From an uncultured Clostridia bacterium (GTDB lineage Bacteria; Bacillota; Clostridia; UMGS1883): 64,000 nt of DNA. Made by a program: the position numbers and the translations under genes. The stretch is from NCBI GenBank assembly GCA_947626145.1, contig CANQRB010000006.1, forward strand, positions 66,089 through 130,088, given 5' to 3'. Each line of letters begins with the position of its first letter. The stretch's first letter is position 1. The notes beneath the pieces are model-generated. The model saw only the letters and a list, made by a program, of their open reading frames with translations. It had not been told where the DNA came from and made no database searches. Below, in pieces: positions 2,001-61,036 of this stretch.

Positions 2001-2786
2001 TCAGCCGAACATCTCAAAGGCGCCGACCACCTTCAGTATCTGTGTATCCACCTTGTCCCGTCCGTAGGCGTCGAGGAAGCGTTCGCCGTATCTGTCGGAC
2101 TTGAGGTTGTAATTCAAGGACCACAGACCCCAGTAAAGGTCAATGTGGCGGTCACCCACGCCGCCGTTGCCAAGGTCTATGAAGCCGCCAAGGCGCCAGT
2201 CGTTCAGTATGACGTTAGGCAGGCAGAAATCCCCGTGAATGAGCACGTCGGACTTTAGCATTTTGCGCCCCTCGACCACCGTGTGCCAGACCTCCTCGGA
2301 GGAGGTGTTGCCCCGGTTGTGGGGGAACATGGCGTCATAGTATCTGCGGCCCCGATAGCACCTTTCGGCGGCGGCGTAATAGTCCTCCGTCCGGTCGGGC
2401 ACGGGGCAGCCGGCGCAGTCGGTCTCGTGGAGCCGGCGGAGAGTTTCGCCCAAAAGCTGGGCCAGACGTTCCGGCTCGTCCAGATACCCGGCGGCGGTAC
2501 AGTCCTCTCCGGGGGCCCGGGCGGTCACCAGCCAGTCCCTGTGGTCGGAGACGTAGCTCACCACCTCCGGAGCCAGACCCTTGGCGTAGAAATATCGGGT
2601 CAGCCGGGCCTCCTTGCTGAGTTCGCCTCTGGACGAGGTTTTCAGAAAATAGCCCCCGTCCCTGTCTATGTAGACCACCTTGGCGGCCTGAGAACAGCTG
2701 CTGTCGTAGATTTTGGCGTCCTTCACCAGAGGCAGCAGCTCCGACGGAAGGCCGTCGGTGTTGAATGTTATCGGTGTGCGTTCCAT
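2001..2786 (-). CDS. Aminoglycoside phosphotransferase (APH(3')-like) family kinase
   Basis: HGDFCLPNVILNDWRLGGFIDLGNGGVGDRHIDL matches the APH catalytic and Mg-binding motifs. Start chosen at ATG 2784-2786 with AGGAGG 9 nt upstream; the ORF track extends further 5'. Confidence 0.7.
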   Translation of the reverse strand: MERTPITFNTDGLPSELLPLVKDAKIYDSSCSQAAKVVYIDRDGGYFLKTSSRGELSKEARLTRYFYAKGLAPEVVSYVSDHRDWLVTARAPGEDCTAAGYLDEPERLAQLLGETLRRLHETDCAGCPVPDRTEDYYAAAERCYRGRRYYDAMFPHNRGNTSSEEVWHTVVEGRKMLKSDVLIHGDFCLPNVILNDWRLGGFIDLGNGGVGDRHIDLYWGLWSLNYNLKSDRYGERFLDAYGRDKVDTQILKVVGAFEMFG

Positions 2787-2847
2787 TGTTGTTTTCCTCC
2801 TTTTTTTGCTGTCATGCGGGGTGTGTTTCACCGTTAGCGCAATGGGT

Positions 2848-2998
2848 TTGATTTATGATTTCGTTTATCATTGTCAGCATAAATGTTTGATGGCGGACGC
2901 CCAATGGGCGCCCCTACGGAGTTCAAGTCACGCAGCGGGAACAGTCAAGGTAACTGCAATATTCATTCCTCATTCCTCATTCCTAACTCCTAATTCCG
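2848..2998. repeat. Partial copy of the dispersed intergenic element (70-bp module M1 plus heptamer array)
   Basis: gatttatgatttcgtttatcattgtcagcataaatgtttgatggcggacgcccaatgggcgcccctacgg is followed by attcctc attcctc attccta actccta attcc at 2960-2998, abutting the stop of the topoisomerase B gene. Near-identical copies are at about 5588-5660 and 6440-6509. Confidence 0.6.
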
Positions 2999-3000
2999 CC

Positions 3001-5007
3001 TTACGAGACGTCCGTCAAATCAATATATCTGCTGCCGTTTTCTGCGATAAAGTCCTTCCTTCCGGCCAGATTGTCCCCAAGCAGCAGGTCGAACATGGCC
3101 GCCGTGGCCTCGGCCTCCTCGGGCATTATCTGGATAAGGCGGCGGGTCCTGGGGTTCATGGTGGTGCGGCTCATCATCTCGGGCTCGTTCTCGCCCAGGC
3201 CCTTGCTCCGCTGGATGTCCACACCCTTATCCGGCAGCTTGGAAAGAATCTCGGCCTTTTCCTTTTCGTTATAAGCGAAATAGGTTTTGTCCTTATAATT
3301 TATCTCGAACAGGGGCGACTCGGCGATGTAGACCCTGCCCTCCTTTATCAGTGTGGGTATGAGACTGTATATCATGGTTATGACCAGAGTGCGGATGTGA
3401 TAGCCGTCAAAGTCCGCGTCGGTGCATATTATTATCTTGTTCCAGCGCAGATTGCTCAGATCGAAGTCGGCGAACTCCTTGTTGGCTCTGGTCTTGACCT
3501 CGACTCCGCAGCCCAGCACCTTTATAAGGTCGGTGATGATGGGGCTGCCGAAAATTTTGTCATAGTCGGCCTTGAAGCAGTTGAGTATCTTGCCCCTGAT
3601 TGGCATAACCGCCTGAAACGCCGCATCCCGGCCCAGAACCACGCTGCCCTTGGCGCTGTCGCCCTCCACTATGTAGAGCTCGCGCTCGTTCACGTCCTTG
3701 CTGCGGCAGTCCACAAACTTCTTGACCCGATTGGTAACGTCCATGGCGGCGCCCAGCTTCTTCTTCATGTTGGTGCGGGTCTTTTCGGCTGTCTCACGGC
3801 TCCGCTTGTTCAGCAGCACCTGGGCCCCGATGCGCTCGGCCTCGGGGATATTTTCGATGAAATATACCTCCAGACTGTGGCGGATGAAGTCGGTCATGGC
3901 CTCCTGAATGAACTTGTTGGTGATGCTCTTCTTGGTCTGGTTTTCATAGCTGACGGTGGTGGAGAAGCAGTTGGTCACCAGCACAAGGCTGTCGGCCACG
4001 TCGTTCCAGGTTATCTTGCTCTCGTTTTTATTGTATTTGGAATTTTGCTTGAGCCAGGCGTCGATGGCGGAGACAAAGGCGCTCTTGGCGGCCTTTTCCG
4101 GAGCGCCGCCGTGTTCGAGAAAGCTGCTGTTGTGATAGTACTCTATCCGTTGCACCTCGTTGGAAAAGGCGAAGGCGAAGCTTATCTTCACCTTGTACTC
4201 GGGCATATCCGCCCGGTCGCTGCCCTTGCGCTCGCCGCTGTAAAAGGCGGTGGAGTTCAGAGCCTTGTCCCCGATCAGCTCGTTGACGTAATCGACGATG
4301 CCGTTTTCGTATTTGTACTCGAACCTTTTGATGCCCCCGTCCCCGTCGTGGTAGGTGAGCTTAAAGGCGATGCCCTCGTTCACCACGGCCTGACGCTTAA
4401 GGCTGTCCTGAAAGAACTCAAGGGGGATTTCAATGTCGGTAAAGACCTCAAGGTCGGGCTTCCACTTGATAGAGGTGCCGGTGCCCCGATACTTCTTTTC
4501 CTCCTTGAACAGGCCGCCCACGTTCTCGCCCTTCTGGAAAAAGAGCTTGTACTCGTACCCGTCACGGTGGATCACCACGTCCATATACTCCGAGGCGAAC
4601 TGGGTGGCGCAGAGGCCAAGGCCGTTGAGGCCAAGAGAGTAAAGGTAGCTCTCGTCCTCGCCCTTGTCGTACTTGCCGCCGGCGTACATCTCGCAGAACA
4701 CCAGCTCCCAGTTGTAGCGCTGCTCTCTGGCGTTCCATTCCACGGGGCAGCCCCGGCCGTGGTCTATGACCTCGATGGAGTTGTCGGCGTAGCGTATGAC
4801 CTCGATAACGCTGCCGTGGCCCTCCTTGGCCTCGTCAATGGAGTTGCTTATTATTTCAAAAACGCTGTGCTCGCAGCCCTCGAGCCCGTCGCTGCCGAAG
4901 ATAACTCCGGGGCGCTTGCGAACCTTGTCGGGGCCTTTGAGCATGGTTATGCTTTCGTTGCCGTAGGATCTCTTAGCCAAAACCATCTGTCCTTTCAAAA
5001 ACAACAT
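3001..5007 (-). CDS. Type IIA DNA topoisomerase subunit B (ParE/GyrB-like)
   Basis: 668 aa with a GHKL ATPase N-terminus (VFEIISNSIDEA), a TOPRIM region (EGDSAKGS...) and the C-terminal PLxGK motif. Its A-subunit partner is at 61051-63225. Confidence 0.85.
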   Translation of the reverse strand: MLFLKGQMVLAKRSYGNESITMLKGPDKVRKRPGVIFGSDGLEGCEHSVFEIISNSIDEAKEGHGSVIEVIRYADNSIEVIDHGRGCPVEWNAREQRYNWELVFCEMYAGGKYDKGEDESYLYSLGLNGLGLCATQFASEYMDVVIHRDGYEYKLFFQKGENVGGLFKEEKKYRGTGTSIKWKPDLEVFTDIEIPLEFFQDSLKRQAVVNEGIAFKLTYHDGDGGIKRFEYKYENGIVDYVNELIGDKALNSTAFYSGERKGSDRADMPEYKVKISFAFAFSNEVQRIEYYHNSSFLEHGGAPEKAAKSAFVSAIDAWLKQNSKYNKNESKITWNDVADSLVLVTNCFSTTVSYENQTKKSITNKFIQEAMTDFIRHSLEVYFIENIPEAERIGAQVLLNKRSRETAEKTRTNMKKKLGAAMDVTNRVKKFVDCRSKDVNERELYIVEGDSAKGSVVLGRDAAFQAVMPIRGKILNCFKADYDKIFGSPIITDLIKVLGCGVEVKTRANKEFADFDLSNLRWNKIIICTDADFDGYHIRTLVITMIYSLIPTLIKEGRVYIAESPLFEINYKDKTYFAYNEKEKAEILSKLPDKGVDIQRSKGLGENEPEMMSRTTMNPRTRRLIQIMPEEAEATAAMFDLLLGDNLAGRKDFIAENGSRYIDLTDVS

Positions 5008-5099
5008 AAAATATTAATATATATTTTACCATAAATCTGCCGTTATGTCCATACCTATTTTTATTTTTTTGTATGTTTTGTGCGACGGGCAGGACGTTT

Positions 5100-5810
5100 A
5101 AAATTAGGAATGAGGAATAAAGTGCGCATAAATTTTATTTGTCATAGGGAATGTTAGACGGTAGGGCGCGACGACTCGGCGCGCCGCAGTGTTAGCGACA
5201 GTAACAATGACAAGAAATAAGCCTTCTCCTTGAGGAGAAGGTGGCGCGTCAGCGACGGATGAGGTGTAGGACGCGAAAGCGTCCGTTAAAATAAACAGAT
5301 AAAAAATAACGCCGCACGGCGGCTACACCTCATCAGTCGGCCTTCGCCGACAGCTTCCCCTTGAGTAAACGCTGATTAAATAACGCCTACGGCTCAGCAC
5401 GACGCCTGACGGCCAAATTTCCCCGATACTGCGTCAAAAATGCTCGAAATACATCAAGTATTTCTGCGCTTTTTTCCTTGTCTCGTGAAAATTATGTCTC
5501 GCCAATCGCCGCACTGTATTTAATCAGTGTTTACTTGAGGGGAAGCCTTTACATTATTTGTCATTTTTACCATAAGATGGCGCAAAGAGTTTTGATTTAT
5601 AATTTCGTTTATCGTTGTTAACATAAACGTTTGATGGCGGACGCCCGATGGGCGCCCCTACGGTATCAAGGTTACGTTTGCGGTTTCGGCGCGCCGGGGT
5701 CGTCGCGCCCTACCGAATATTTGTCATTCATACTTATTGCATAAATTCACATTCCCATGACAAATAAAACCGCCGCACAACCTATTCCTCATTCCTAATT
5801 CCTAATTTTC
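5100..5810. repeat. About 700-bp non-coding element bounded by roughly 90-bp terminal inverted repeats (MITE-like, mosaic)
   Basis: Left end: aaaattaggaatgaggaataaag...ttttatttgtcatagggaatgt...ggtagggcgcgacgactcggcgcgccg (5101-5195). The right end (5690-5808) is its reverse complement, with heptamer arrays at both tips. The interior carries module M1 (5588-5660), GC palindromes (ccttctccttgaggagaagg, ggacgcgaaagcgtcc) and no ORF over 60 aa. Confidence 0.6.
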
Positions 5811-6194
5811 CACTCCTATCTCATTAAGCGCAAACTCCACAGCGGCATTATATATCACTCCGACAAAAAACGGCACATAAATCTCCGGCCCGACGTCGTT
5901 CCGCAGCATAAGCCAGCTCAGTCCGGCAAGGATCACCGTCCGGGGCAGACTCCGCAGGGACAGGGCCGTCAGAGCGGCGGCCGTCAGCGCCCAGAACATC
6001 GGCACGCTGTCCCCCGCCGCCAGCGTCCCCACTGCGGCCAGCAGTCCGCCCAGCACAACGCCGTACCAGCGGCAGACCGGCGGCCTCGGCAGGGATACGA
6101 ACAGGGCGGCGCAAAAAAACATCAGTCCCTCCCGCCATACGCCCAGAAGGGCGCAGATTCCCAAGCCAAAAAGCACAGCGAAATATTTTTTCAT
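5802..6194 (-). CDS. Hypothetical small membrane protein
   Basis: 130 aa and hydrophobic with 3-4 predicted TM helices. The RBS GGGGGGAG lies upstream of ATG 6192-6194. Its stop codon sits inside the heptamer repeat array. No recognisable family. Confidence 0.4.
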   Translation of the reverse strand: MKKYFAVLFGLGICALLGVWREGLMFFCAALFVSLPRPPVCRWYGVVLGGLLAAVGTLAAGDSVPMFWALTAAALTALSLRSLPRTVILAGLSWLMLRNDVGPEIYVPFFVGVIYNAAVEFALNEIGVEN

Positions 6195-6353
6195 GACGGC
6201 ACTCCCCCCTTGAGTAAACTTCCATATTTCAAGTGTTGCCGCCGCGGGCCGTCAATATTCTTTAAAAATATAGTTTGGTAATTTTCGAAAAATGTTGGGG
6301 CAAAATATTGACAAGACACGGAATGTGTGGTATAATCAGGAAAAGACGGAAGA

Positions 6354-6582
6354 GAATGAGGAATTAGGAGTGAGGAATTAGGAATAAAGCGTGCGTCAGT
6401 TTTGTTTGGCGTTTTTACCTTAAGGCCGTATAGGAAAATCCGATTGATAATTTCGTTTATTATCGCCGCCGTAAACGTTTGATGGCGGACGCCCAATGGG
6501 CGCCCCTACGATACCCTGTATTATAACTACCCCACCAATCACCATTTATTCCTCATTCCTCATTCCTAATCCCTAATTTTCC
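6354..6582. repeat. Small inverted-repeat-bounded intergenic element (heptamer array - M1 module - heptamer array)
   Basis: gaatgag gaattag gagtgag gaattag gaataaag (6354-6389) ... M1 copy (6440-6509) ... ttattcc tcattcc tcattcc taatccc taatttt (6546-6582) in inverted orientation. The element ends 15 nt before the hflX RBS. Confidence 0.6.
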
Positions 6583-6598
6583 CAAAGGAGGCACACCC

Positions 6599-7855
6599 AT
6601 GACCGAAAAAACAATCGAACGCGCCATACTCTGCGGCGTACACCGTGATTTGCCGGACAGAACCGAGGACACCACCGACGAAACCATCGCCGAGCTGCGG
6701 GAGCTGGCAAAGACCGCCGGAGCCGAGGTGGTGGGCGTGATGGTGCAGAATAAGGATCACCCCGAAACCGCCGCTTACTTCGGCGAGGGAAAGCTGGAAG
6801 AATTAAAATCAGCCATAGCCGCTCTGGAGGCCGACCTGCTGATCTTCGACGACGAGCTCACCGGCAGTCAGATAAGGAACATCGAGGACATCACCGGCGT
6901 TCGGGTGATAGACCGCAGCACCCTTATTCTGGACATTTTCGCCTCCCGGGCCCGGTCTAAGGAAGGCAAGATACAGGTGGAGCTGGCCCAGCTCAGGTAC
7001 AACCTGCCCCGGCTGACGGGGCTTGGAACTCAGCTCAGCCGTCTGGGCGGCGGCATCGGCACACGCGGCCCCGGCGAAACAAAGCTGGAAAGCGACCGCC
7101 GCCACATTCACCGGCGTATCGAGGCCCTTGAGGAGCAGCTCGCCGAGGTGGAGCGCCACCGGGAGCTGCTGCGCGGGCGGCGCACCAAGGACGGGGCCGT
7201 CACCGCCGCTCTTGTGGGCTACACCAATGCCGGCAAGAGCACCCTTATGAACAAGCTCACCGGCTCGGACATCTTCGCGGCGGATATGCTCTTCGCAACC
7301 TTGGATCCCACCGTCCGCTCCCTTGAGCTTTCCGACGGGCGGAACGCCGTCATTGTGGACACCGTTGGCTTTATACGCAAGCTGCCCCACCATTTGATAA
7401 AGGCCTTCCGCTCCACCTTGGAGGAGGCCGCCGAGGCGGACGTGCTCATTCACGTTATCGACGCTTCCGATCCGGAAATGCAGACCCACATCGCCGTGGC
7501 CGACGACCTGCTGGAGGAGCTGGGCTGCAAGGCCGCCCGCACCGTGGCCGTGTTCAACAAATGCGACATCGCTCCGCCCCTGTCTCCCCGGCCCAGAGGC
7601 CGGTACACCGACTATGTGTCGGTCAGCGCCGCCACCGGCGAGGGGCTCGACCGGCTCATGGAAATTTTGGAGGACGCCCTCCCCGGCAAAAAGCGGGAGG
7701 TCAGTCTGCTCTTCCCCTACTCCGACAGCGGCGAAGCCGCAAGGCTCTACGACACCGAGGTAATTCTTGAGGAGGAGTACACCGACGCCGGAATAAAAAT
7801 GCGTATCCTCGCAGATGAGGCCGTGTACGCAAGGGTCAAAAAGTGGGAAGCGTAA
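6599..7855 (+). CDS. hflX: GTPase HflX
   Basis: N-terminal HflX domain plus G domain GYTNAGKSTLMN, DTVGF and NKCD motifs. RBS AAAGGAGG. Confidence 0.9.
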   Translation: MTEKTIERAILCGVHRDLPDRTEDTTDETIAELRELAKTAGAEVVGVMVQNKDHPETAAYFGEGKLEELKSAIAALEADLLIFDDELTGSQIRNIEDITGVRVIDRSTLILDIFASRARSKEGKIQVELAQLRYNLPRLTGLGTQLSRLGGGIGTRGPGETKLESDRRHIHRRIEALEEQLAEVERHRELLRGRRTKDGAVTAALVGYTNAGKSTLMNKLTGSDIFAADMLFATLDPTVRSLELSDGRNAVIVDTVGFIRKLPHHLIKAFRSTLEEAAEADVLIHVIDASDPEMQTHIAVADDLLEELGCKAARTVAVFNKCDIAPPLSPRPRGRYTDYVSVSAATGEGLDRLMEILEDALPGKKREVSLLFPYSDSGEAARLYDTEVILEEEYTDAGIKMRILADEAVYARVKKWEA

Positions 7856-17206: not shown

Positions 17207-20200
17207 TTATTTTCTTGTCACGCTTTCGGCCTTGGTCACGGGAACGGTCTTATCCACCATCCAGACATAAACTCTTATCTCGGAGCCGGAGGCCGCGGGC
17301 GTAAAGTCGATGCTTATATTCTGCGCAGCGGAGTTTACGGAAACCTTTTTGGACTTCACATTCAGAAGCTTTCCGTCCTCATATTCGGCGGCATAAGCGT
17401 CAACCTCGATGTAATCCTGAGCGTTGTTGAGGACGAAGCTTACCGTACCGTCGGCATATACCGCGTCGGTCACGGCCACCTCGACATTGTTATTTATAAC
17501 GCTGACCTCAACCTCGCCGCTCATGGTTATTTTTTCCTCAACGGCGGGATCGGGATGGCTGAAGGTGACGGAAACGGTGATCCTCGCGCTGCCGGCGGCC
17601 ACGGCTCTGACTTCGGCGGTACCGGCCGAGGCTCCGGCGGTGACATCGGCTATATTCACGTCGCCGCTCAGCCAGTCGGCAGTCTCAACAACATACGAGC
17701 CGTCGGCGGGCAACACTGTTATTCCCACGGTATCGCCGACGTTGGCAATAATGCCGGCGGGTTCAAGAGTGAAACCCAGCTGAGCCTTGTAATCCACGGC
17801 AGTGACGGCTCTGGAGGAACCGATGCTTACGTAGATCGTACCGGCCTGTGCGGTCAGGGCGTCGCCGTCAAGCATTATCCTGAACTGACCGGTGGTTCCG
17901 GCGGGAATAACGACGCTCTCGCTGACGGGGTCGGTCATTTCCCTGTCGGAATAGAAGGTGACAGTGTCATACTCCTGAAGGTTCACGCCGTCCACGTCAA
18001 CATAGGCGTAATCCGCCTCGGGAAGGTTGTAGATAACGGCCTTTGCCTCACGGACGTTGGGTGTGAGGCTGACCTTCACGGTTCCGCTGACCGTCTTGTA
18101 GTTGAGGTCGTCGGGAACGAAGGTCCAGCCGTAATCGGTATCGGCCTCGGCAACTATCTGCTCGGGGGCCTGATCTCCCACGCTGTTCCAGGTGAGGGCG
18201 CCGCCCAGAGCGCCGCCGTTCACGTCGGTGAAGCCGTTGGTAAGCACGGACTCGGCCAGGAAGGAGCCCTCCTCCACATCAGAGGCGGTGACCTCGCCGG
18301 CGGGAGCCGCCTGCTCAATTATCATGGTTCCCGTTACGGTGTTGCCGGCCAAAGCCGCCGTCTCGGGTACGCTTACCCGATAGTCATAGCTTCCGGCGTT
18401 CACGGGAGCGTCCTTCGACCAGCCTTCGGCGACTGCGGGCTCGCTGACAACAGCCATGATCATCGCCTCATCCGCCTGAACGTCCACGCTGTGGATCCTG
18501 TACTCGACGGTCACGTCCGCCCTGGCGTCGGTTGCGGCGGTGACGGTCTTGGCCTTGCCGTCATAAACAAGGCTTTCCGGCAGGGTTATGTTCAGAGCGG
18601 CGGGAATCTTGTTGCTGGCCGTTACCGAGGTATATCCGGTAACGGGAGAATTGTAGTTATCCGTGTCGCCGGGAGTGAATATCCACTCGTAGTTATAAGC
18701 GCCCTCACTGAGAACCGTTTCGGGCTGAGCCCATACAAGGGTTCCTTCCACGGCGGCGTGGTTGTTGGGATTTTCAAAGGTACCGGCGAGGGTGTCAACG
18801 GAGGCAAGAGTGTTGCCCGTAAGGCCGTTGCCCGCGCTGACGTTGACCTTGGCGGGAGTGGCCTTTGTTACCGTCACTTCACCGGTCACCGTGCCTATAT
18901 CGTAGTTCGAGCCGGCCAAAGCGGCGGCGGTGACGGCATAGCTGCCGGCGGCGGCGGTTTCGGCCGCGCCCTCGCTGGAAAGTCCGGCCTTGATGTCGGC
19001 CTTGGTCTCACCGGCGACAAGCGGGGTATCCGGGGAAACCTCAAAGTCGCTGTCGGTGAGGGTCAGGGTCTGACCGTACTCCTTTTCGGCGGAGGCGGTC
19101 AAATTAACCGTTCTCCTGTTTATATCGCCTGTGGTATGATGGGTATGGGCGGCCAGAGTGTAGTTGGCGGCGTCCCTGCCGGTGAGAGAATCAGCGGCGA
19201 CGGTCACGGTAACATTCTTGGCCGTACCGGCGGCAGCATTTTCGTAAACCGCTGTCACGGCGGAGGCGGGAATGCTTACCTCATCGCCCTCCACAAGGTT
19301 GCCCACGGCAACGGAGCCTCCGAGCAGGGCCTCCGCCGTGCCGTCATAGGTCTTGGGCGCAACGGCTATGGCGCTGTAATCGGGCTCAACGGCCAGGGGA
19401 AGGATGTTGAGGGTGGTGTACATCAGGCCGGGAGCAAACTCGTCGGTGGCCTCAATATAGGCCCGAACACTGTAAACACCGGCATCGACGGGCTCGTCGG
19501 ATACCCAATCCTCAGTGCCCTCGGGGGCGTATTTTACGGTTATCTCACCGTCTCTGTCGGCGGTGAACTTTATCCGCTTGGGCCGGCCGTCATAGACGAA
19601 CTTCATATCTTCATCGGTGAGCTTATTGAAGTTGGTGGGCGTCTTGTCGGACACGATTATGCTCACGGTATCGCCGGTCACCTTTTCGTAATTGACCTCA
19701 TCGGCGGGAGTGAATACATAAGCGGCCTGATAATTGCCCTTTTCGCTGTATGACCTGTCAGGCTCGGCCCAGGTAAACTCGCCGTCCACATGAGCCTCGG
19801 TATACGGGTTCTTGTAGTGGCCGGATATCTTTGACTGCGACAGGGCAACCTCGGTCCTTATACCTGTGGCGTCAGCCTCGACCTTGACGGGAACCGTCTT
19901 TTCGACAGTAACGCCGGCGGCAGTCTTACCGTCCAGGGTCACGGAGTAGTTGCTGTTGGCGGTGGCGTCAAGGGTATAGGGATATGCCCCGTCCTTTACC
20001 GCCGCGCCGGGAGCAAAGCCCTCGCTGCCAAAGGTTATCTTCAATTCATCGTTGGGAACGTCCTTATCGTTGGCGAAGCTCACATCGGCGGAGGTCTTTG
20101 TCTCGCCGTAGAACTTGGTCATGCCAACGGGGGTGACCGTCACGGGCATGGGATCAATATTGGCGGTCAGGGTAAACGCGGCGGCCTTTGACATTGAGTA

Positions 20201-23200
20201 GTTGCCGCTGCCGTCTCCCGTGAGAGAGTAGGCGGGCACGGTGACATTGACCGTCTTGTTTTGTCCGGCGTTTACGTCGCTGAACAGGGCCGAAATCTTT
20301 TCGCCGTCGATTGAAACGGCATCGCCCTCTGCCTTATTGGTTATGGCTATCTCACCGCTGAGAGAAACGGTATTGGCGCCGTCATAGGTTTTATTTGCGG
20401 CGGCGAGAGTGCCCTTGTCAAGGGTGACCTCAAGGGGATTGATAACAAGCTTGGCCTCGGTGGAATGGCCCAAATAATCGGGATTCGGGGCTATAGTGGC
20501 CCTTACACGGTAGGTACCGGCATTGACGGGAGGCTCATTGGTCCAGTTTTCGGTGCCTTCGGGGGCATATTCAACGGTTATTTCTCCCTCCCGACTGGCC
20601 TCGACGCTGACCGCCTTGGCCTTGCCGTCATAGGTCTGCTCCGGCAGAGAGACGGTGACGGTTGTAGGCGCCCGGTCACTGACGGTTACGGAAGCGGTAC
20701 GGGTCACGGTCATGGTCTTTTCGGCGGAATCGGGATCGGGATGCTTAAACACAGTTTCGACCATAAGGGTCGCCCGACCGGAGTCAAGGCCGGAGACAAC
20801 GGCGCTTTCGCCGCTTCCCTCAACGGAAACACAATCCTCGTCAACTATCCACTTCGAGCTGACTATCTCGTAATCGCTGTCGGATCTGATCAGCTTCACA
20901 TCGGTAGTCTCCTGAGGCTTGACGGTGATCTCGACGGGATCAATGCTGAAGTCCACCTCATTCTTATACTTTACGGTCTCCCACTTTGTGGAGCCCTCGA
21001 TGCGGGCATATACTTCTCCGGCGGAGGCGGCAAGCGCGTCGGGATCGAGAGCTATCCTCACCCTGCCGCTCATATCCCGGGTTATATGTACCTCGCGGCA
21101 TACGGGATCGTCGGGCTCGGCGGCGATCACGCCGCCCTGGTTGTTCACACTGTATTTATAGAAGGCTACAACGTCGCCGACCTTCAGGTTCTCGCCGTCA
21201 ACGTTGACATAGGCGTAGTTGCCGTCGTCGCCGGGAAGGTTGTAAACAACGGTGTCCTTAGGCGCCCGGGTGAGGGTGACGCTGACTCTGGCGGTACCCG
21301 TAACGCTGCGGTAGTTTTCCGACGTGGGCAGGAATACCCAGGTGTAATCCACATCGGGTCTTACGGTTACCTGATTGGGCTGTCTTTCGCCGTAGGGCAT
21401 CCAGCCGAGCTTACCGTCAACGGCAGTTCCGTCCACGCCCGTGAAGGTGCCGCTCAGCAAGGCCATATCCAAGGTCTGGCCGGTCTCGACACCGGCGGCC
21501 GTAACCTCTGCGGCGGCCTTGGGCTCGGCGGGGGAAATGTTAAGCACGGCGGTGGTGGAGTTGGCGGCATAATCACCGTCCGCGGCAACGTCTATCTTAA
21601 CAAGGTAGTTGCCCGCATCCACGGGAGCGTCGGCTGTCCAGCCGGCCGCACCGGCAGGAGCGGAGGCTCCGCCCTCAAATGAAGGCTGCTCCTGTCCCTC
21701 GTCGTGAGGCGCGGCGTCGGTCTTCTGATACTGTACGGTAACGGCTCCGCCTGAGTTTGTCGTTGCGGTAACGACCTTTTGCCTGCCGTCGTATACCCGA
21801 TTTTCGGGGAGCTGTACGGTAATCGACGCGGGCTCCTTGGCCACGCCGGTAACCGTCACGCTGCCCTCACGGGAGGTGTAGTTGTGCTGATCTTCGGGAA
21901 TGAACTCCCACTCGTATACATTGGCGCCCTGCTTTATTTCGGTTTCGGGCTGCTTCCAATGGAGGTCGCCCTTGACCTCGTTCCTGGTGTAGGGGTTCTC
22001 AAAGGTGGCGCTCAGCGTAACGGAGGAAAGGGGCTTGCCCTCCTTGCCGTCGGTGACGGCCACGTTATCCCTTACCAGTCCGGGAGTGGCCTGCTTTACG
22101 ATGACCTTGCCGGCCCCGCCCTGGAAGCCATTTCTCACATAGTTGCTGGTGGGGGCGGTGTCGCCCTTTATTTCGTACTCGCCCACCTCGGCGTCAACGG
22201 CGGCGCCGGCGCTGGTGAGCACCATCTTTACGTCTTCCTTGGTTTCGCCTTCGACAAGGTGGCCCACGGATATATCAAAGTCCTCATGGTCAAAAATTAT
22301 GTATTCGCCATAGAATTTTTCCTTGTCCGGAACGGTAAAGGTCAGGGGCAGAGGAACGATGGTCGCCTCGGCGTGATGAACCATGTCGTGAGGAATGATA
22401 TAGTTTGCCGCCTGAGCGCCCTCGAGGGCGTTCGCCGCATGGAGCGTCAATTCAAGCGTCTGCTTGCCGGCGTTGGGGTGCAGGAATTCGGCGGTCACAT
22501 TGGCCCGCTTTATCCTGACGTCGTCCGCGACGCTCTTGCCGTCCACCGTCCTGTAATACCTGTAATATACCTCAACGGGTGTGAGGGCGATGTTGGCGTT
22601 GGTTCTGCCGTTGTATGCCTTCTGCGAAACGGGGGTGGGGTGCCACAGGAACTGGGTCAATTCCCTCTGACGGATGGTCAGATTGGCCACGCCTGTGCCC
22701 TCGGCATAGCCCCCTTCGCTCCCGATATAGGCTATGACGTCATAGCTGCCGGCGTCGATGGGTTCCTCTGTGCTCCACTCTTCCGTGGAGCTGTGGAGCC
22801 TGTAGCGCACGGTGATCTCACCCTCGCGGTCGGCCTGGAAGCGCACGCCGTGGGGCTTTGCGTCATACATGAGATCCAGTTTTTGTCCGGGAACAACCGT
22901 GACAAGAGTAGGAGTGCCGCTGGAAACGGTCACCGTCACCGCATCCTCAACGGTCTTATAGTTTTGTGTGTCCGTGGGGGTAAATATGTAGGGCTCGACA
23001 AAGGTGCCCTCCGAGCTCATTTTTTTGTCTCCGTCCTTCCACTTGAAGGTTCCGTGAACGGGCTCGTCCGTATATCTGTTGACAAATTTTGCCGTAATTA
23101 CGGACTCGGAGAGCTTCTGGCCCACGGCTATGCCGGAGGTGCTCTCCGACGCAACCATTGGTTCGGACTGGGTGACGGTGACGACGGGCTTGTCGCTTTC

Positions 23201-24481
23201 GTCGATCGTCACGCTGTAGCCCGTCACCTGACCGCTGATTGTATAGGGATAGCTGCCGACCTTGGCGGCGGCCTCGAAGCCGGCGCTGGTGAAGGTCAGG
23301 CCGTTGCGGATGAATGATTCGTCAACGCCTTCGGCAAGTATATTGTACTTTACATCCGAGGAAGTACGGGTCTCGCCGTATTCCTTGGTGATGCTCTCCG
23401 GCTTCACGGTTATGCCCATGGAATTTACGGTGAGCTTTAAGTTAATTTTGCGTATAACGCGGAATGAGTTATAGTAAAACTGCATTACACCGGTATGCAC
23501 ACCCGCGGTAAGACCGGTTTTGGCCACGATTTGGCCATTTACGGTCTCGCCGGGCTCGATGGGGTTCTTATCCAGCTTAAGGCTGCCGACGGCACAGTTG
23601 AAACTGCCGTACATGGTCAGCTTCTGATTGCCGGTGTTCTTAAACTCAATATTGACGGGCTTGACATCCTCCGCCGTATAGCCCATAGTGGCGGCGCCCA
23701 GATCGATGCTGGCGGAAAGGCTTCCGCTGGCGTCGCTGACGAAGATGCTCTCACCCTTGTGCTCGCCGTCGGCGTAGACTATATCGTAGTCATATCTGGG
23801 GAGCTCGCTGACAACGGCGGTCAGCTTCGGTATGCTGCCGTCCTCGCCGAGGGCGGGGACTCTGTTGACGATTTTACCCTCCGCGTCCTTCCAGCCTCTG
23901 ATGCCATTATTGGGATCGTTAGAGACAATCTTGGGGAGACCCAGCATATCAAGGGAGTCGTTCTCGAAGGCATAAATGGGGCTGGCGACCTCGGTCTCGA
24001 AACTGCCGTCCTTCGGATCAATGATCAGCTCAACGGCGGACATCTTCTTTTCCAGGGAATTGGTGGGTTCCTGATCCGCAGCGAGGCTGCCGTCCTCATC
24101 CCTTCGGGGATTGGCGTACCAGTTTACTTTATAGCTGCCGGTCTCGACCGAAGGCATTTCCCAGCAGAAATAGTTGTCTCCGCCGTCTTTTATTCTTGAC
24201 GGGTAGGATTTTTCGCCATTCGGGGCGATCACCTCGATAACTCCGTCGGAGTCATAGGGAAGTCTGCCCCAGGTTCCGACGTTCCAAAAGCTGACCCACA
24301 TAATACTGTCCTGTTTTACGGGGCAGCCTGACGAACTTACAGAGCCATAGGCCTTGTAGTTCAGTGACATGATAGTCACGGCCGACGCCATAAGTTCGGC
24401 GTCCTCGGCCATAGCCATCGCCGGGAATACGGCGCAGATCATGGTCAGTGCCACAAGTGCCGCCAAAATTCGTTTTTTCAT
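17207..24481 (-). CDS. Giant secreted repeat protein (2424 aa) with MBG (YDG) and Big_2 Ig-like domains; putative adhesin
   Basis: Signal peptide MKKRILAALVALTMICAVFPAMAMA. Many KTYDG/VYDG motifs and Ig-like modules. A large internal segment is duplicated. No LPXTG was seen. RBS AAGGAGAA. Confidence 0.8.
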   Translation of the reverse strand: MKKRILAALVALTMICAVFPAMAMAEDAELMASAVTIMSLNYKAYGSVSSSGCPVKQDSIMWVSFWNVGTWGRLPYDSDGVIEVIAPNGEKSYPSRIKDGGDNYFCWEMPSVETGSYKVNWYANPRRDEDGSLAADQEPTNSLEKKMSAVELIIDPKDGSFETEVASPIYAFENDSLDMLGLPKIVSNDPNNGIRGWKDAEGKIVNRVPALGEDGSIPKLTAVVSELPRYDYDIVYADGEHKGESIFVSDASGSLSASIDLGAATMGYTAEDVKPVNIEFKNTGNQKLTMYGSFNCAVGSLKLDKNPIEPGETVNGQIVAKTGLTAGVHTGVMQFYYNSFRVIRKINLKLTVNSMGITVKPESITKEYGETRTSSDVKYNILAEGVDESFIRNGLTFTSAGFEAAAKVGSYPYTISGQVTGYSVTIDESDKPVVTVTQSEPMVASESTSGIAVGQKLSESVITAKFVNRYTDEPVHGTFKWKDGDKKMSSEGTFVEPYIFTPTDTQNYKTVEDAVTVTVSSGTPTLVTVVPGQKLDLMYDAKPHGVRFQADREGEITVRYRLHSSTEEWSTEEPIDAGSYDVIAYIGSEGGYAEGTGVANLTIRQRELTQFLWHPTPVSQKAYNGRTNANIALTPVEVYYRYYRTVDGKSVADDVRIKRANVTAEFLHPNAGKQTLELTLHAANALEGAQAANYIIPHDMVHHAEATIVPLPLTFTVPDKEKFYGEYIIFDHEDFDISVGHLVEGETKEDVKMVLTSAGAAVDAEVGEYEIKGDTAPTSNYVRNGFQGGAGKVIVKQATPGLVRDNVAVTDGKEGKPLSSVTLSATFENPYTRNEVKGDLHWKQPETEIKQGANVYEWEFIPEDQHNYTSREGSVTVTGVAKEPASITVQLPENRVYDGRQKVVTATTNSGGAVTVQYQKTDAAPHDEGQEQPSFEGGASAPAGAAGWTADAPVDAGNYLVKIDVAADGDYAANSTTAVLNISPAEPKAAAEVTAAGVETGQTLDMALLSGTFTGVDGTAVDGKLGWMPYGERQPNQVTVRPDVDYTWVFLPTSENYRSVTGTARVSVTLTRAPKDTVVYNLPGDDGNYAYVNVDGENLKVGDVVAFYKYSVNNQGGVIAAEPDDPVCREVHITRDMSGRVRIALDPDALAASAGEVYARIEGSTKWETVKYKNEVDFSIDPVEITVKPQETTDVKLIRSDSDYEIVSSKWIVDEDCVSVEGSGESAVVSGLDSGRATLMVETVFKHPDPDSAEKTMTVTRTASVTVSDRAPTTVTVSLPEQTYDGKAKAVSVEASREGEITVEYAPEGTENWTNEPPVNAGTYRVRATIAPNPDYLGHSTEAKLVINPLEVTLDKGTLAAANKTYDGANTVSLSGEIAITNKAEGDAVSIDGEKISALFSDVNAGQNKTVNVTVPAYSLTGDGSGNYSMSKAAAFTLTANIDPMPVTVTPVGMTKFYGETKTSADVSFANDKDVPNDELKITFGSEGFAPGAAVKDGAYPYTLDATANSNYSVTLDGKTAAGVTVEKTVPVKVEADATGIRTEVALSQSKISGHYKNPYTEAHVDGEFTWAEPDRSYSEKGNYQAAYVFTPADEVNYEKVTGDTVSIIVSDKTPTNFNKLTDEDMKFVYDGRPKRIKFTADRDGEITVKYAPEGTEDWVSDEPVDAGVYSVRAYIEATDEFAPGLMYTTLNILPLAVEPDYSAIAVAPKTYDGTAEALLGGSVAVGNLVEGDEVSIPASAVTAVYENAAAGTAKNVTVTVAADSLTGRDAANYTLAAHTHHTTGDINRRTVNLTASAEKEYGQTLTLTDSDFEVSPDTPLVAGETKADIKAGLSSEGAAETAAAGSYAVTAAALAGSNYDIGTVTGEVTVTKATPAKVNVSAGNGLTGNTLASVDTLAGTFENPNNHAAVEGTLVWAQPETVLSEGAYNYEWIFTPGDTDNYNSPVTGYTSVTASNKIPAALNITLPESLVYDGKAKTVTAATDARADVTVEYRIHSVDVQADEAMIMAVVSEPAVAEGWSKDAPVNAGSYDYRVSVPETAALAGNTVTGTMIIEQAAPAGEVTASDVEEGSFLAESVLTNGFTDVNGGALGGALTWNSVGDQAPEQIVAEADTDYGWTFVPDDLNYKTVSGTVKVSLTPNVREAKAVIYNLPEADYAYVDVDGVNLQEYDTVTFYSDREMTDPVSESVVIPAGTTGQFRIMLDGDALTAQAGTIYVSIGSSRAVTAVDYKAQLGFTLEPAGIIANVGDTVGITVLPADGSYVVETADWLSGDVNIADVTAGASAGTAEVRAVAAGSARITVSVTFSHPDPAVEEKITMSGEVEVSVINNNVEVAVTDAVYADGTVSFVLNNAQDYIEVDAYAAEYEDGKLLNVKSKKVSVNSAAQNISIDFTPAASGSEIRVYVWMVDKTVPVTKAESVTRK

Positions 24482-39876: not shown

Positions 39877-39954
<78 letters not shown>

Positions 39955-39961
39955 ACAATAA

Positions 39962-39992
39962 AAACAGACGTCTTTGCGGGCGTCTGTTTTTT
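39962..39992 (+). terminator. Intrinsic terminator of the tRNA-fMet transcript
   Basis: aacagacg-tctttgcggg-cgtctgtttttt. Confidence 0.65.
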
Positions 39993-40032
39993 CGTTTATC
40001 GGCAAATCTGAACAAAGACCGTCATTTTGCCC

Positions 40033-40065
40033 CGAGGGCACTTGACATCGGGGCGGGGAAAATGG
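40033..40065 (+). promoter_or_regulatory. Candidate promoter for the DUF2442-like ORF
   Basis: TTGACA-tcggggcggggaaaatgg-TATAAT (18-nt spacer), followed by an approximately 150-nt leader. Confidence 0.45.
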
Positions 40066-40216
40066 TATAATTGTTGTAGATGATTGGAGAGTGATAGTTT
40101 TGCCAACAATGGCTGGGCCGCGTTTCATCAGGAGGAGCTGCTTGAAAACCGGGCTCTCGCGGAAAACAGGCAGGAGCTTTTCGCAATAGAACCTCTGAGA
40201 TAAGGAGAGTTGCCGC

Positions 40217-40567
40217 ATGAAAAAGGATGTAAATTATTACCTCGCCAACGGCTTTGACCGGCCCATGGCGGAATATTTTGCCTCAGGGCGCAAGCGTATC
40301 ACCGCCGTTTCCCCAAACAGCGATTTTACGCTTACGCTGGATTTCGACAACGGTGAGAGGAGAATTTTAGACTGCAAGTCCTTCTTGAAGGCCGGCACAG
40401 TCTTTGAACCCTTTATTCGGTTTGAGAATTTCAAGCGCGTATATCTTGACGACACCCACTGTGTGGCGTGGGACATCGACCCGTCTGTTGACAGCAATGT
40501 TGTCTGGGACAATAAGGTCGATTTATGCCCGGACTGCTGCTATGTTGACAGCGTGCCGGTGGTTTAG
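40217..40567 (+). CDS. Small hypothetical protein (DUF2442-like)
   Basis: 116 aa. Pattern TLTLDFDNGERRILD...VAWDIDPSVDSNVVWDNKVDLCPDCCY resembles DUF2442 (...W.NGAD.cPD.LY). RBS AAGGAGAG. Bracketed by the tRNA-fMet and a copy of its 3' end. Confidence 0.45.
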   Translation: MKKDVNYYLANGFDRPMAEYFASGRKRITAVSPNSDFTLTLDFDNGERRILDCKSFLKAGTVFEPFIRFENFKRVYLDDTHCVAWDIDPSVDSNVVWDNKVDLCPDCCYVDSVPVV

Positions 40568-40641
40568 CGCAGCCGCCTGTGCGGCGCCGCAGCGATACAA
40601 ACCAACATGCTGCCGCATTGCAGCCCACGCAAACCCATATT

Positions 40642-40698
40642 GGTTCAAATCCGCAGCCAACATAAAAAAACAGACGTCTTTGCGGGCGTCTGTTTTTT
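40642..40698 (+). repeat. Duplicated tRNA-fMet 3' fragment (T-loop onward) plus terminator: att-like direct repeat or tRNA remnant
   Basis: ggttcaaatccgcagccaacataaaaaaacagacgtctttgcgggcgtctgttttttg matches 39930-39992 (ggttcaaatcc...aacagacgtctttgcgggcgtctgtttttt). The acceptor-stem portion is diverged. Confidence 0.6.
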
Positions 40699-40739
40699 GT
40701 TATTGCGGATCTCCTGTCCGCGCTTTTTACTGTTTGGGC

Positions 40740-52184: not shown

Positions 52185-52224
52185 TCGGCGTTTATAGTTA
52201 AAACCATCAATACGCAGGTTTGTC

Positions 52225-52605
52225 GTTGTTAACGTAAACCGTACAGCGGCGCGCCGGGGTCGTCGCGCCCTACCGTGGTATTTGTCATTGTTACTAAGGT
52301 ATGTAAATGCCGCACGGTTAAGGCTTCCCCTGGAGGGGAAGCTGTCGGCGAAGGCCGACTGATGAGGTGTAGCCGCTGTGCGGCGTCAGTGTATACGTTA
52401 TGTTTAATTTTATAACGGATGCTTCGCATCCTACACCTCATCCGGCCCTGCGGGCCACCTTCCCCTCGAGGGGAAGGCTTTTGCATCGTCTGTCGTTGTT
52501 AACATAAACCGTACAGAGGCGCGCCGGGGTCGTCGCGCCCTACCGTGATATTTGTCATTGTTGCTAAAGTATGTAACTGCCGCATATTAAAGGCTTCCCT
52601 TTCAA
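52225..52605. repeat. Intergenic repeat block: two ~100-bp direct repeats sharing modules with the 5100-5810 element, plus perfect GC palindromes
   Basis: gtcgttgttaacRtaaaccgtacagMggcgcgccggggtcgtcgcgccctaccgtgRtatttgtcattgtt occurs at about 52230-52310 and 52490-52570. Palindromes ggcttcccctggaggggaagc, ccttcccctcgaggggaagg and gatgcttcgcatc. Also ggccgactgatgaggtgtagccgc, which is the reverse complement of a segment at about 5330. Confidence 0.6.
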
Positions 52606-52622
52606 TGGGGAAGCCTTTAATA

Positions 52623-53870
52623 CTATAACTTAAATAACTCACGTCTTACGGCGTCAAGGGCGTTGAGCACGGTACGCACTCTCACCCGCTGACGGTCGCC
52701 GGAGAGGTTCAGCTTCACCGTCCGGACGCCCAGCTCGGAGGCCAGGCCCACATACACCAGTCCCACGGGCTTTTCCGGCGTTCCGCCGCCCGGCCCGGCA
52801 ATTCCTGTGACAGCCACGGCGATGTCCGCCCCGCTGACACGTCTGGCTCCGGCGGCCATTTCCGCCGCCGTTTCGGGACTGACGGCCCCGTGAGCCGCAA
52901 GGGTCTCCCGCCGGACGCCCAGAATTTGCTCCTTGGCCTCGTTGGCGTAGGTGATAAAGCCGAAGCCGTAAACCTCGCTGGCGCCGGGCACGGAGGTTAT
53001 GGCCGAGCCTATCATGCCGCCGGTGCAGCTCTCCGCCGTGGCGAGGGTCTTATTTTTTTGCCTTAGCAGCTCCACCACGGTACCGGCCATGGTTGCGCCG
53101 TCGCCCTCGGCGTAAATTTTGTCGCCAAATTCCCGATACATCCGCTCCGCAACGGGAGCCAGCAGCCTTTCGCCCTCTTCGGGACTGTTTGCCATGGCCG
53201 TTATGCGGAAGGTGACCTCGCCCTCCTTGGCGTAGGGGGCCACGGTGGGATTGGTCTGGTTTTTTATCAGGTCGTCGATCTGAAGGGCCGCCGCGCTCTC
53301 TCCTATTCCAAAGACACGCAGCACTCTTGAGTACAGGCCGACGCCGCTGAGCCTGCGGAGAAAGGGCTCCGCCCCGTTCAGAAACATGGGCTCCATCTCC
53401 CTCGGCGGGCCGGGGAGGAGGACGGCGGTCTTTCCGTCCTTTTCAAAGATGCAGCCCGGCGCGGTGCCGTTGTCGTTGGGGAGTATAATTCCGTCGCCCT
53501 CCGCCGGCAGATATGCCTGCTTCAGGTTGTTTTCGGGCATTGACTTATCCCAGCCCCTGATATAGGCCCGCATTTTGTCCACGCTGGGTTGGTGGAGCTT
53601 CAGCTCCGCGCCGAAAAGCTCCGCCACGGTTTCCTTGGTCAGGTCGTCGTCGGTGGGCCCAAGCCCGCCGGTGAACACAACAACGTCGCAGCGGCTTAAC
53701 GCAAGCTCCGCAGCGTCCCGCAGCCGCCGGGGATTGTCCCCAACCACGGTCTGGCGCAGAACGCTTATCCCCAGTCCGGTCAATCTTTCCGCCAGAAATC
53801 GGGCGTTGGTGTTCAACGTCTGCCCCATGAGCAGCTCCGTCCCCACGGCGATTATTTCGGCTGTGAGCAT
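52623..53870 (-). CDS. cinA: Competence/damage-inducible protein CinA (NMN amidohydrolase PncC domain)
   Basis: N-terminal MoCF-binding-like domain (IIAVGTELLMGQ) and a C-terminal CinA domain. Start at the internal ATG with GAGGAG RBS, 4 nt after the thiI stop. Confidence 0.85.
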   Translation of the reverse strand: MLTAEIIAVGTELLMGQTLNTNARFLAERLTGLGISVLRQTVVGDNPRRLRDAAELALSRCDVVVFTGGLGPTDDDLTKETVAELFGAELKLHQPSVDKMRAYIRGWDKSMPENNLKQAYLPAEGDGIILPNDNGTAPGCIFEKDGKTAVLLPGPPREMEPMFLNGAEPFLRRLSGVGLYSRVLRVFGIGESAAALQIDDLIKNQTNPTVAPYAKEGEVTFRITAMANSPEEGERLLAPVAERMYREFGDKIYAEGDGATMAGTVVELLRQKNKTLATAESCTGGMIGSAITSVPGASEVYGFGFITYANEAKEQILGVRRETLAAHGAVSPETAAEMAAGARRVSGADIAVAVTGIAGPGGGTPEKPVGLVYVGLASELGVRTVKLNLSGDRQRVRVRTVLNALDAVRRELFKL

Positions 53871-60584: not shown

Positions 60585-60609
60585 GGGAAAAATCAGATCC
60601 TTTGACGTA

Positions 60610-60643
60610 GAATTAGGAATTAGGAATGAGGAATGAGGAATAC
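60610..60643. repeat. Solitary heptamer array (GGAATKA)x5
   Basis: gaatta ggaatta ggaatga ggaatga ggaatac, between the NTase stop and the ABC exporter start. Confidence 0.55.
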
Positions 60644-60697: not shown

Positions 60698-61036
60698 TCA
60701 ACCAATTTTCTTCCCCTCCCTTGCAATATTGCGGTAATAGGGCAGTACATTTTTGTATTCCTCAAATTCGCTGCGGGGTATCACCGTGGGAGAGATTATT
60801 ACGTCGTTTTCCAGTCCCAACTCGGCGGCCATATCCCAGACGGACTTAAGCTTGCGTTGCAGCTCGGCTCGGTCGCCCTCCACAATGGCAGCAATGTCTA
60901 TGTCGGAATTTTCGTCAAAATCCTCTCTGGCATATGAACCGTAGAGAAATATGCAGTCCACGTTTTCGCCGTAAACACTGCGGAAATATCCCGCCACTAT
61001 CCTTGAAAGCTCACGGGCCTTCGGTTCGGGACACAT
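60698..61036 (-). CDS. Minimal nucleotidyltransferase (MNT/Pol-beta superfamily) protein, orphan
   Basis: GSYAREDFDENSDIDI is the GS...DxD NTase motif. 113 aa. AAAGGAGGT RBS. The track ORF is over-extended at its 5' end. Confidence 0.7.
   Translation of the reverse strand: MCPEPKARELSRIVAGYFRSVYGENVDCIFLYGSYAREDFDENSDIDIAAIVEGDRAELQRKLKSVWDMAAELGLENDVIISPTVIPRSEFEEYKNVLPYYRNIAREGKKIG

Follow-up and report, generated by a model that had tools for sequence, protein, structure and literature searches.

The Correia elements of Neisseria are bacterial MITEs, namely small, non-coding, inverted-repeat-bounded sequences that are found in 5' UTRs and whose transcript hairpins can be cleaved by RNase III; in Listeria, an antibiotic-responsive leader has been reported for hflXr. 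Arrays of short units have been described in Xanthomonas, in which (GGGANTN)n arrays most often comprise four units, form 70-75 convergent inverted pairs per genome and are located no more than 50 nt from ORF ends, the G-rich strand being the coding one after stop codons and the non-coding one before start codons (Rehm et al. 2015, PMC4692102). The arrays of Nostoc consist of GGGGA(T/C)T units, and a G-quadruplex explanation was proposed for the Xanthomonas arrays (PMC4692102). According to the summary of Mrazek et al. 2007 given in PMC4679880, heptanucleotides are the most abundant long simple repeats and are over-represented in bacteria, for which polymerase slippage was proposed. In Haemophilus influenzae, a transcribed (ATCTTTC)n array in the 5' UTR of hmw1A forms one arm of a hairpin that is processed by RNase III, and the number of repeats sets the level of expression (PMC12721329). 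REP sequences have been tabulated by Nunvar et al. 2010 (including GTAGGGTGGGCTTCAGCCCACC and GGTAGCGCCGGGCCATGCCCGGCG), and REP/RAYT systems, in which RAYT is a Y1 transposase, are described mainly in Proteobacteria (PMC2817692).

In the window (the whole 64-kb stretch of DNA that was analysed, from an Oscillospiraceae-like MAG of a gut Clostridia lineage), an element of ~230 bp was found in front of hflX, in which two arrays of the heptamer AGGAAT(G/T), or AGGAATK, stand in inverted orientation. Between 6340 and 6600 the order is GAAAAGACGGAAGAG on the promoter-proximal side, the left array, 150 nt of cargo, the right array and TTTCCCAAAGGAGGCACACCCATG. A period-7 scan placed the left array at 6353-6389 (GAATGAGGAATTAGGAGTGAGGAATTAGGAATAAAG) and the right array at 6544-6579 (TTTATTCCTCATTCCTCATTCCTAATCCCTAATTT); each inverted arm (6352-6393 and 6540-6581) spans 42 nt, with 83% complementarity between the two, and (AGGAATN)x3 with up to three mismatches was matched 16 times in the window versus 0.01 expected. 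The original prediction, which was made from the sequence of this stretch and proposed inverted heptamer arrays at 6354-6389 and 6546-6582, was therefore correct on the arrays, as it was on the copy of a module named M1 between them. This copy is one of three of 86 nt in the window (2847-2932, 5591-5676, and 6439-6524), and the M1 core GTTTGATGGCGGACGCCCAATGGGCGCCCCTACG has three occurrences (2885, 5629, and 6477) versus none expected. The hairpin GGACGCCC-AAT-GGGCGCCC with one mismatch that had been noticed in M1 could be located at 6487-6505, the mismatch being A.C. The right array had been put about 15 nt before the Shine-Dalgarno sequence (SD), but the measured distance is shorter, since its end at 6578-6582 lies 5-8 nt ahead of GGAGG (6587-6591) and 17-20 nt ahead of the ATG at 6599. 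Similarly, the element was said to sit on the promoter/RBS region of hflX, which needs to be amended: it does not cover the promoter but lies between the promoter (6308-6336) and the SD. It is indeed bounded by inverted repeats; however, the view of it as a second copy of one such element is too simple for a mosaic with solo arrays, array-less modules, and strain-variable cargo.

An assembly artefact can be excluded because three independent assemblies (L001-L003) carry the identical sequence. The hflX gene encodes a GTPase of 418 aa with HflX N-terminal, middle, and GTPase domains, whose homologues put the host among uncultured Oscillospiraceae/Clostridia. Its promoter matches the sigma-70 consensus at 12 of 12 positions, has an extended -10 region and is the sole promoter-like site facing hflX, and the promoter scan found no such site inside the element. 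An ORF of 101 aa on the minus strand (6191-6496, TTG start), which runs across both promoter and left array, was treated as spurious. A possible mini-ORF of 10 codons (GTG CGT CAG TTT TGT TTG GCG TTT TTA CCT TAA, 6391-6423) begins 7 nt past the last AGGA of the left array, its start being buried in the predicted stem; tiny ORFs are also present 3' of the left arrays in L010 (MHQHCLSLE), at 5122 of the window (MRINFICHREC) and at the hflX site of L004, all of which may be chance. The coordinates of the hflX leader and of related features are listed in Table 1.

Table 1. Positions in the window of the components of the hflX leader and of related repeats
Feature	Position	Strand	Remarks
hflX promoter, TTGACA-17-TGgTATAAT	6308..6336	+	Outside the element; predicted TSS near 6343; conserved with and without the element
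Left arm, purine-strand array AATGAGG AATTAGG AGTGAGG AATTAGG AATAAAG and inner boundary GGAATAAAGCGTG	6352..6393	+	Boundary common to L004 and L010
M1 5' extension (TTTGTnnnnTTTTTACCTTAAG...)	6400..6438	+	Homologous by alignment to 5552-5590 and L010
M1 core	6439..6512	+	Hairpin 1, CGTTTA (6454-6459)/TAAACG (6472-6477)
REP-like GC hairpin in M1	6487-6505	+	Followed by CTAC (6506-6509), the GTAG head on the minus strand
Inner-right spacer (...CCACCAATCACCATTT)	6513..6543	+	Homologous across all three occupied alleles
Right arm, pyrimidine-strand array ATTCCTC ATTCCTC ATTCCTA ATCCCTA ATT, then TTT	6540..6582	+	Pairs with the left arm in the predicted RNA fold
hflX SD AAAGGAGG (6584-6591) and coding sequence from ATG 6599	6584..7855	+	CDS 6599-7855
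Long related mosaic	5093..5811	.	Left array 5101-5122, M2 5212-5372, M1 5552-5667, right array 5780-5809
Partial copy	2808..2998	.	M1 (2847-2932) and right array only (2959-2998); 3 nt past the parE-like stop
Array-less mosaic	52190..52640	.	Module A twice, M2 once; between PGA_cap and cinA genes
Solo heptamer array	60607..60643	+	22 nt upstream of the start of an ABC-transporter gene (minus strand); pyrimidine strand is sense

Orthologous loci were recovered for HflX homologues of decreasing identity. Comparison of the hflX upstream regions agreed with the proposal that the element is an insertion, as the same sequence is not present in all relatives: in four relatives whose HflX is 80-90% identical (L007, 90%; L131, 89%; L132, 86%; L133/L134, 80%), the site is empty, with the promoter followed by a leader of 15-45 nt that has no arrays. 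Further occupied sites belong to closer homologues, L004 (97%) and L010 (95%), in which arrays are found at the same position between the same flanks (CAGGAAAGACGAAAGAA ... TTTCCCRAAGGAGG). Unit numbers in the left and right arrays are ~4.5/5 in the window, 3/5 in L004, and 2/2 in L010, and the inner boundaries GGAATAAAnnGTG (left) and CACCnnTCACCnTnTATTCCT (right) are common to the three occupied alleles. Inside these conserved boundaries the cargo of L004 has been swapped, a palindromic unit named M2 being present where the window has M1. Because the window and L010 share M1 of the same loop subtype, M1 is the older cargo at this site. Based on these comparisons, the element is a lineage-specific, fast-evolving insertion. 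In L008 (88%), ~200 nt of unrelated hairpin repeats without heptamers occupy the same position of the hflX leader (2750-3000 of that locus); this leader either is hit by insertions again and again or tolerates them. At 5310-5450, the L008 locus also contains a GTAG palindrome together with a copy of M1.

The conservation of the promoter in both empty and occupied alleles indicates that the element was not its source. Thus, of the two effects that had been suggested for the insertion, the supply of a promoter can be dropped, since the promoter lies upstream and is kept in relatives with the empty site, whereas an altered 5' UTR is well in line with the data, the predicted leader being lengthened ~8-fold (~255 nt versus ~30 nt without the element, if the 6308-6336 promoter is used). 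This leader is predicted to fold with -82.5 kcal/mol (z = -5.1), the arrays forming a closing stem, which was predicted in all three occupied alleles (window, L004, and L010) although these differ in cargo. The predicted duplex is nearly continuous over ~35 bp and extends from 8-10 nt off the predicted 5' end to 5-8 nt before the SD, for which the predicted probability of being unpaired is 0.72, 0.48, and 0.57 in the three alleles. As the arrays close the cargo off and the SD is mostly unpaired in these models, the insertion would be structurally self-contained, in keeping with its having persisted in front of a housekeeping gene. Between the arms, the variable (G/T) positions mismatch, so perfect pairing is not maintained. 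A scan for intrinsic terminators gave only a weak hairpin at 6393-6412 that is not conserved in L010, and did not call the array stem.

A modelled duplex of ~35 bp near the 5' end would be the kind of structure that RNase III cuts. Like the repeat of hmw1A, the arrays form a heptameric tandem repeat between promoter and start codon, vary in unit number between strains and, judging from the predicted promoter and fold, would be part of a long hairpin in the 5' UTR (PMC12721329). Unlike in hmw1A, where the repeat is one arm, both arms consist of arrays here; moreover, hmw1A concerns phase variation of an adhesin with RNase III cleavage demonstrated by experiment, whereas the gene here is the housekeeping hflX and the hairpin is a prediction (PMC12721329). 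By analogy, RNase III processing and an effect of unit number may also occur at hflX.

The cargo resembles known repeats of another type. M1 reads cGTAG-GGGCGCCC-ATT-GGGCGTCC on the minus strand, an example of a GTAG-headed palindrome being cGTAGGGGCGCCCATTGGGCGTCC (6487-6509, minus strand), and eight intergenic GC-rich hairpins with a GTAG head, falling into three sequence classes, were found in the window. In six copies of M1 the hairpin was predicted in every case, with compensatory stems GGGCGC/GCGCCC, GAGCGC/GCGCTC, and GGGCGG/CCGCCC. The cargo thus shows a GT(A/G)G head, an imperfect palindrome of ~20-35 nt that is kept as structure, and inverted doublets or mosaics. These features are shared with REP, BIME, and REPIN sequences, in which an imperfect GC-rich palindrome of ~20 nt immediately follows the GTAG head, several sequence classes occur per genome, all of them extragenic, and inverted doublets (here the M2 unit) and mosaics with linker motifs are formed (PMC2817692). 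REPs number tens to hundreds of copies per genome, and the cognate RAYT gene is usually REP-flanked. The association with heptamer arrays, which are not part of the REP definition, is a difference, and no RAYT or other transposase was detected among the window proteins scanned with Pfam, which covered part of the 64 kb. By its form, the cargo may be classed as REP-like. AGGAATK arrays were also found beside GTAG palindromes in other Clostridiales MAGs (L017, L121, L029, and L023), and searches of viral contigs with the M1 core gave no match. Heptanucleotide array hairpins and REP/BIME-like mosaics are already known kinds of sequence; what is new is the lineage.

In the window, M1 (three copies), heptamer arrays (six), module A (GGTAGGGCGCGAC...GGCGCGCC; four), and M2 (two) are all intergenic and occur together or apart. 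Five of the largest gaps between genes contain recurrences of M1, module A, and M2. The six arrays returned by the period-7 scan (2959-2998, 5101-5122, 5780-5809, 6353-6389, 6544-6579, and 60607-60643, in addition to one chance match) have 2-5 units each. M2 is a palindromic unit of ~160 nt that consists of a P hairpin, two inverted GATGAGGTGTAG-hairpin units, and a P' hairpin; its three full copies include 5212-5372 and 52318-52486 of the window and the hflX site of L004. M1 is in sense orientation at hflX and antisense to the flanking genes at its other two sites, which disfavours an orientation-specific RNA function of the cargo. The long mosaic at 5093-5811 contains the GTAG-REP module A at 5160-5190 and an inverted copy at 5687-5715, and lies at the 3' end of a gene for a 130-aa membrane protein, upstream of a parE-like gene. 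The array-less mosaic fills the 450 nt that separate PGA_cap from cinA, two convergent genes, with one M2 palindrome and two direct copies of a 112-nt unit that contains module A. The solo array separates the ABC-transporter gene from a low-GC3 nucleotidyltransferase gene (60701-61030, minus strand; Polbeta/NTP_transf_2), which looks inserted between the genes for topoisomerase IV subunit A and for the transporter.

The small membrane-protein gene (5802-6194) and the parE-like gene (3001-5007) are both on the minus strand. In relatives of up to 90% identity the membrane protein has 135-150 aa with the C-terminus ...EIYGKIKN...FG, and its gene overlaps or directly adjoins the parE-like gene in L007, L008, L131, and L133. 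The window protein of 130 aa ends in ...NEIGVEN, its stop codon TAG (5802-5804) being within a heptamer array, and a remnant of the old C-terminus (QIYGKIYINIL) is seen at ~5010-5045, beside a promoter-like site for the parE-like gene (5051-5023). Because L010 has a short version (~95 nt) of this insertion, sequence comparison suggests that the mosaic grew by nested insertions. Over no more than a few percent of protein divergence, such nests of repeats reshape leaders and operon junctions of housekeeping genes: that of hflX has grown as a leader from ~30 to ~255 nt, and the neighbouring membrane-protein gene has lost its C-terminus and been uncoupled from the parE-like gene.

As in Xanthomonas, the unit has 7 nt with a GGAAT core (AGGAATK here, GGGAATC there), and the arrays are intergenic, most often of four units, frequently in convergent pairs, and variable in unit number between relatives. 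They differ in that the host is a Clostridia MAG, no unit has a G-tract of three or more (GG only), and paired arrays enclose REP-like cargo of 150-650 nt. Both pairs of the window (6354-6389/6546-6582 and 5101-5122/5780-5809) are convergent; 2959-2998 and 5780-5809 adjoin stop codons or overlap them, the purine strand being sense, and 6546-6582 and 60607-60643 precede start codons with the pyrimidine strand as sense. An exact search with AGGAATKAGGAATKAGGAAT gave at least 120 stretches in species-representative genomes, the matches listed spanning Bacteroidota, Clostridia, Acidobacteriota, Chloroflexota, Cyanobacteria, Planctomycetota, Verrucomicrobiota, CPR, and others, and 104 stretches in viral contigs, in which the controls AGAGTAK and AAGGATK (a permuted heptamer) gave 18 and at least 120 stretches, respectively. 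One viral contig of 100 kb has ~10 AGGAATK arrays between consecutive genes.

The loci surveyed (L011-L130 from genomes, L135-L238 and L257-L376 from viral contigs) are a non-random set of matches with crude longest-ORF gene calls. Among the matches listed, convergent pairs exceeded divergent ones by 18:1, 17:1, and 18:1 in three survey sets, and the modal array length was four units in both genomes and viral contigs. AGGAATK arrays within 60 nt after a stop codon, and clear of it, had the purine strand as sense in a ratio of 44:14 in genomes and 27:8 in viral contigs (among the matches listed and by crude ORF calls); under the same limits, no strand bias was seen before start codons. AAGGATK arrays among the matches listed had the same pair polarity but no strand bias at stop codons. 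Simple array hairpins with loops of 9-15 nt were observed in other phyla. Since AAGGATK is at least as common, AGGAATK appears to be one of several favoured GGA-containing heptamers rather than a unique mobile signature. The idea that its spread across phyla reflects a single mobile element was weakened by this control, and the cargo is unshared outside close relatives. The exact heptamer strings were found in the literature only as a chance primer match.

The G-quadruplex reading was rejected, as no unit contains GGG; because AGGAATK has no G-tract, G-quadruplexes cannot explain the preference for four units. That the array rules hold for units unable to form such structures removes the only mechanism proposed so far and points to a testable cause at the level of the transcript or of slippage. 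These findings also suggest that the heptanucleotide arrays of Xanthomonas and Nostoc are members of a widespread class that obeys strict rules of polarity and position, and not lineage oddities. A bolder version, to which we would give only a small chance, is that AGGAAT(G/T) and the Xanthomonas GGGAATC arrays form one pan-bacterial, phage-borne intergenic class that acts on the transcript and follows fixed rules (the purine arm always 5' of the pyrimidine arm, a mode of about four units, and the purine strand as sense right after stops), in place of neutral microsatellites or G-quadruplexes. The arrays may then handle ribosomes through their SD-like/anti-SD-like sequences or, processed by RNase III, serve as insulators by which intercistronic DNA is looped out, and the hflX hairpin with its REP cargo would be a natural case in which a ribosome-rescue GTPase is tuned via unit number.

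Several explanations of the hflX element have to be weighed. It is probably an insertion of mosaic repeats into the hflX leader that is transcribed and acts, if at all, post-transcriptionally. Alternatively, it might be a true MITE, i.e., a non-autonomous transposon that has the arrays as its terminal inverted repeats and is moved whole by a transposase encoded elsewhere. Like MITEs such as the Correia elements, it is small, non-coding, inverted-repeat-bounded (42-nt arms, 83%; ~230 bp in all), and located in a 5' UTR; in addition, it has several copies in the window, varies in presence between relatives, and has outer ends that are alike between copies (GAAAAT/TTAGGAAT ... ATTCCTAATTTTC), and the strict polarity of array pairs would be expected of directional transposase sites. 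On the other hand, no target-site duplication or direct repeat was seen at the ends of the four array-bounded sites, where divergence of the empty sites prevents the insertion junctions from being fixed and a possible 17-nt similarity at the ends of the 5093-5811 element is ambiguous. Unlike in MITEs such as the Correia elements, there is no fixed terminal length, the cargo is variable, and no related IS was identified. Solo arrays and array-less modules exist, close strains have different cargo at one and the same site, and unit numbers differ between ends and strains. Moreover, arrays are present in many phyla and in phage contigs without shared cargo, for which no single transposase family can account, and there was no transposase among the neighbouring genes scanned. 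A MITE origin is therefore considered unlikely. In L017 and L143, the members of some array pairs are far apart, and what they enclose looks like ordinary genes with arrays in the spacers.

It is somewhat less likely still that the arrays themselves are an RNA-level signal, such as ribosome-handling or insulating sites bracketing intercistronic spacers, with the hflX copy as a working instance and the REP cargo as a later passenger in the loop. Strict polarity, the four-unit mode, and the purine-sense bias right after stops in two collections (among the matches listed) would be accounted for, as would the simple array hairpins with 9-15 nt loops in other phyla and the window arrays that adjoin stops (2959-2998 and 5780-5809) or precede an SD or start by 5-22 nt (6546-6582 and 60607-60643). 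However, the equally common AAGGATK arrays lack the stop-codon bias, no bias exists upstream of starts, and the survey relies on crude longest-ORF calls and non-random matches. The least probable explanation, and a very improbable one, is a dedicated cis-regulatory leader of hflX, either a transcription attenuator, with UUUU after a long stem, or a switch that senses ribosomes, comparable to the leader of Listeria hflXr. The location exactly between promoter and SD, the stem followed by 4-5 U, an SD-like left arm and anti-SD-like right arm, the possible mini-ORF after the left array (GTG 6391 to TAA 6423), and the structured leader of L008 are compatible with such a role, but the element is absent from relatives of up to 90% identity, its central cargo is swapped in L004, the same modules are found at unrelated loci in both orientations relative to transcription, and the stem has an A/U-rich base that the terminator scan did not call. 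Rfam gave no relevant family (at gathering thresholds, only two tRNAs in the window; with a permissive E-value over 5000-6700, a best E of 0.056 with 20.9 bits versus a gathering score of 37), and in a metagenome scan none of 80 more distant hflX loci had period-7 arrays (best HflX match 69% identical, no extra alleles of this leader).

The mosaic insertion is lineage-specific and consists of two components. A convergent pair of AGGAAT(G/T) arrays, whose units would be gained and lost via replication slippage, is combined with REP-like cargo (a GTAG head followed by a GC-rich palindrome) that may have spread in a REP/RAYT-like or recombinational manner and been swapped between copies via the shared arrays. 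The short hflX leader would thereby have acquired repetitive DNA that is transcribed from the upstream hflX promoter, and in the transcript the arrays would pair into the ~35 bp stem, leaving the cargo in a closed domain and both SD and start codon accessible, and this would account for the tolerance of the insertion. If hflX is affected, the effect would most likely be post-transcriptional, with the long duplex near the 5' end as an RNase III substrate or stability determinant whose strength is set by unit number. The element is most likely a tolerated selfish insertion with a slippage-prone stem that is possibly an RNase III target. Some observations weigh against this reading: a stem that has to close across 150 nt may be slow to form in vivo, the hairpin leader of L008 could mean that a structured leader is selected and not merely tolerated, the TSS is a consensus prediction, the arms do not maintain perfect pairing, and no target-site duplication is defined.

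Other repeats were noticed in the window. A lower-GC gene on the minus strand (764-1945) encodes a secreted protein of 393 aa with seven tandem repeats of 23 aa (YIGEFQNGxxNGQGEYHWPDGxYY; 69-bp repeats at the DNA level), which look like MORN repeats. A minus-strand ORF of 2424 aa (17207-24481) contains internal repeated DNA segments (families D4, D6, D8, and D17). In addition, at 39877-40700, a small DUF2442 gene (40217-40567) lies between two identical terminator-like hairpins of 33 nt (AAAAACAGACGTCTTTGCGGGCGTCTGTTTTTT; 39960 and 40666), and a tRNA gene (39877-39951) immediately precedes this segment, which may be a small inserted cassette.
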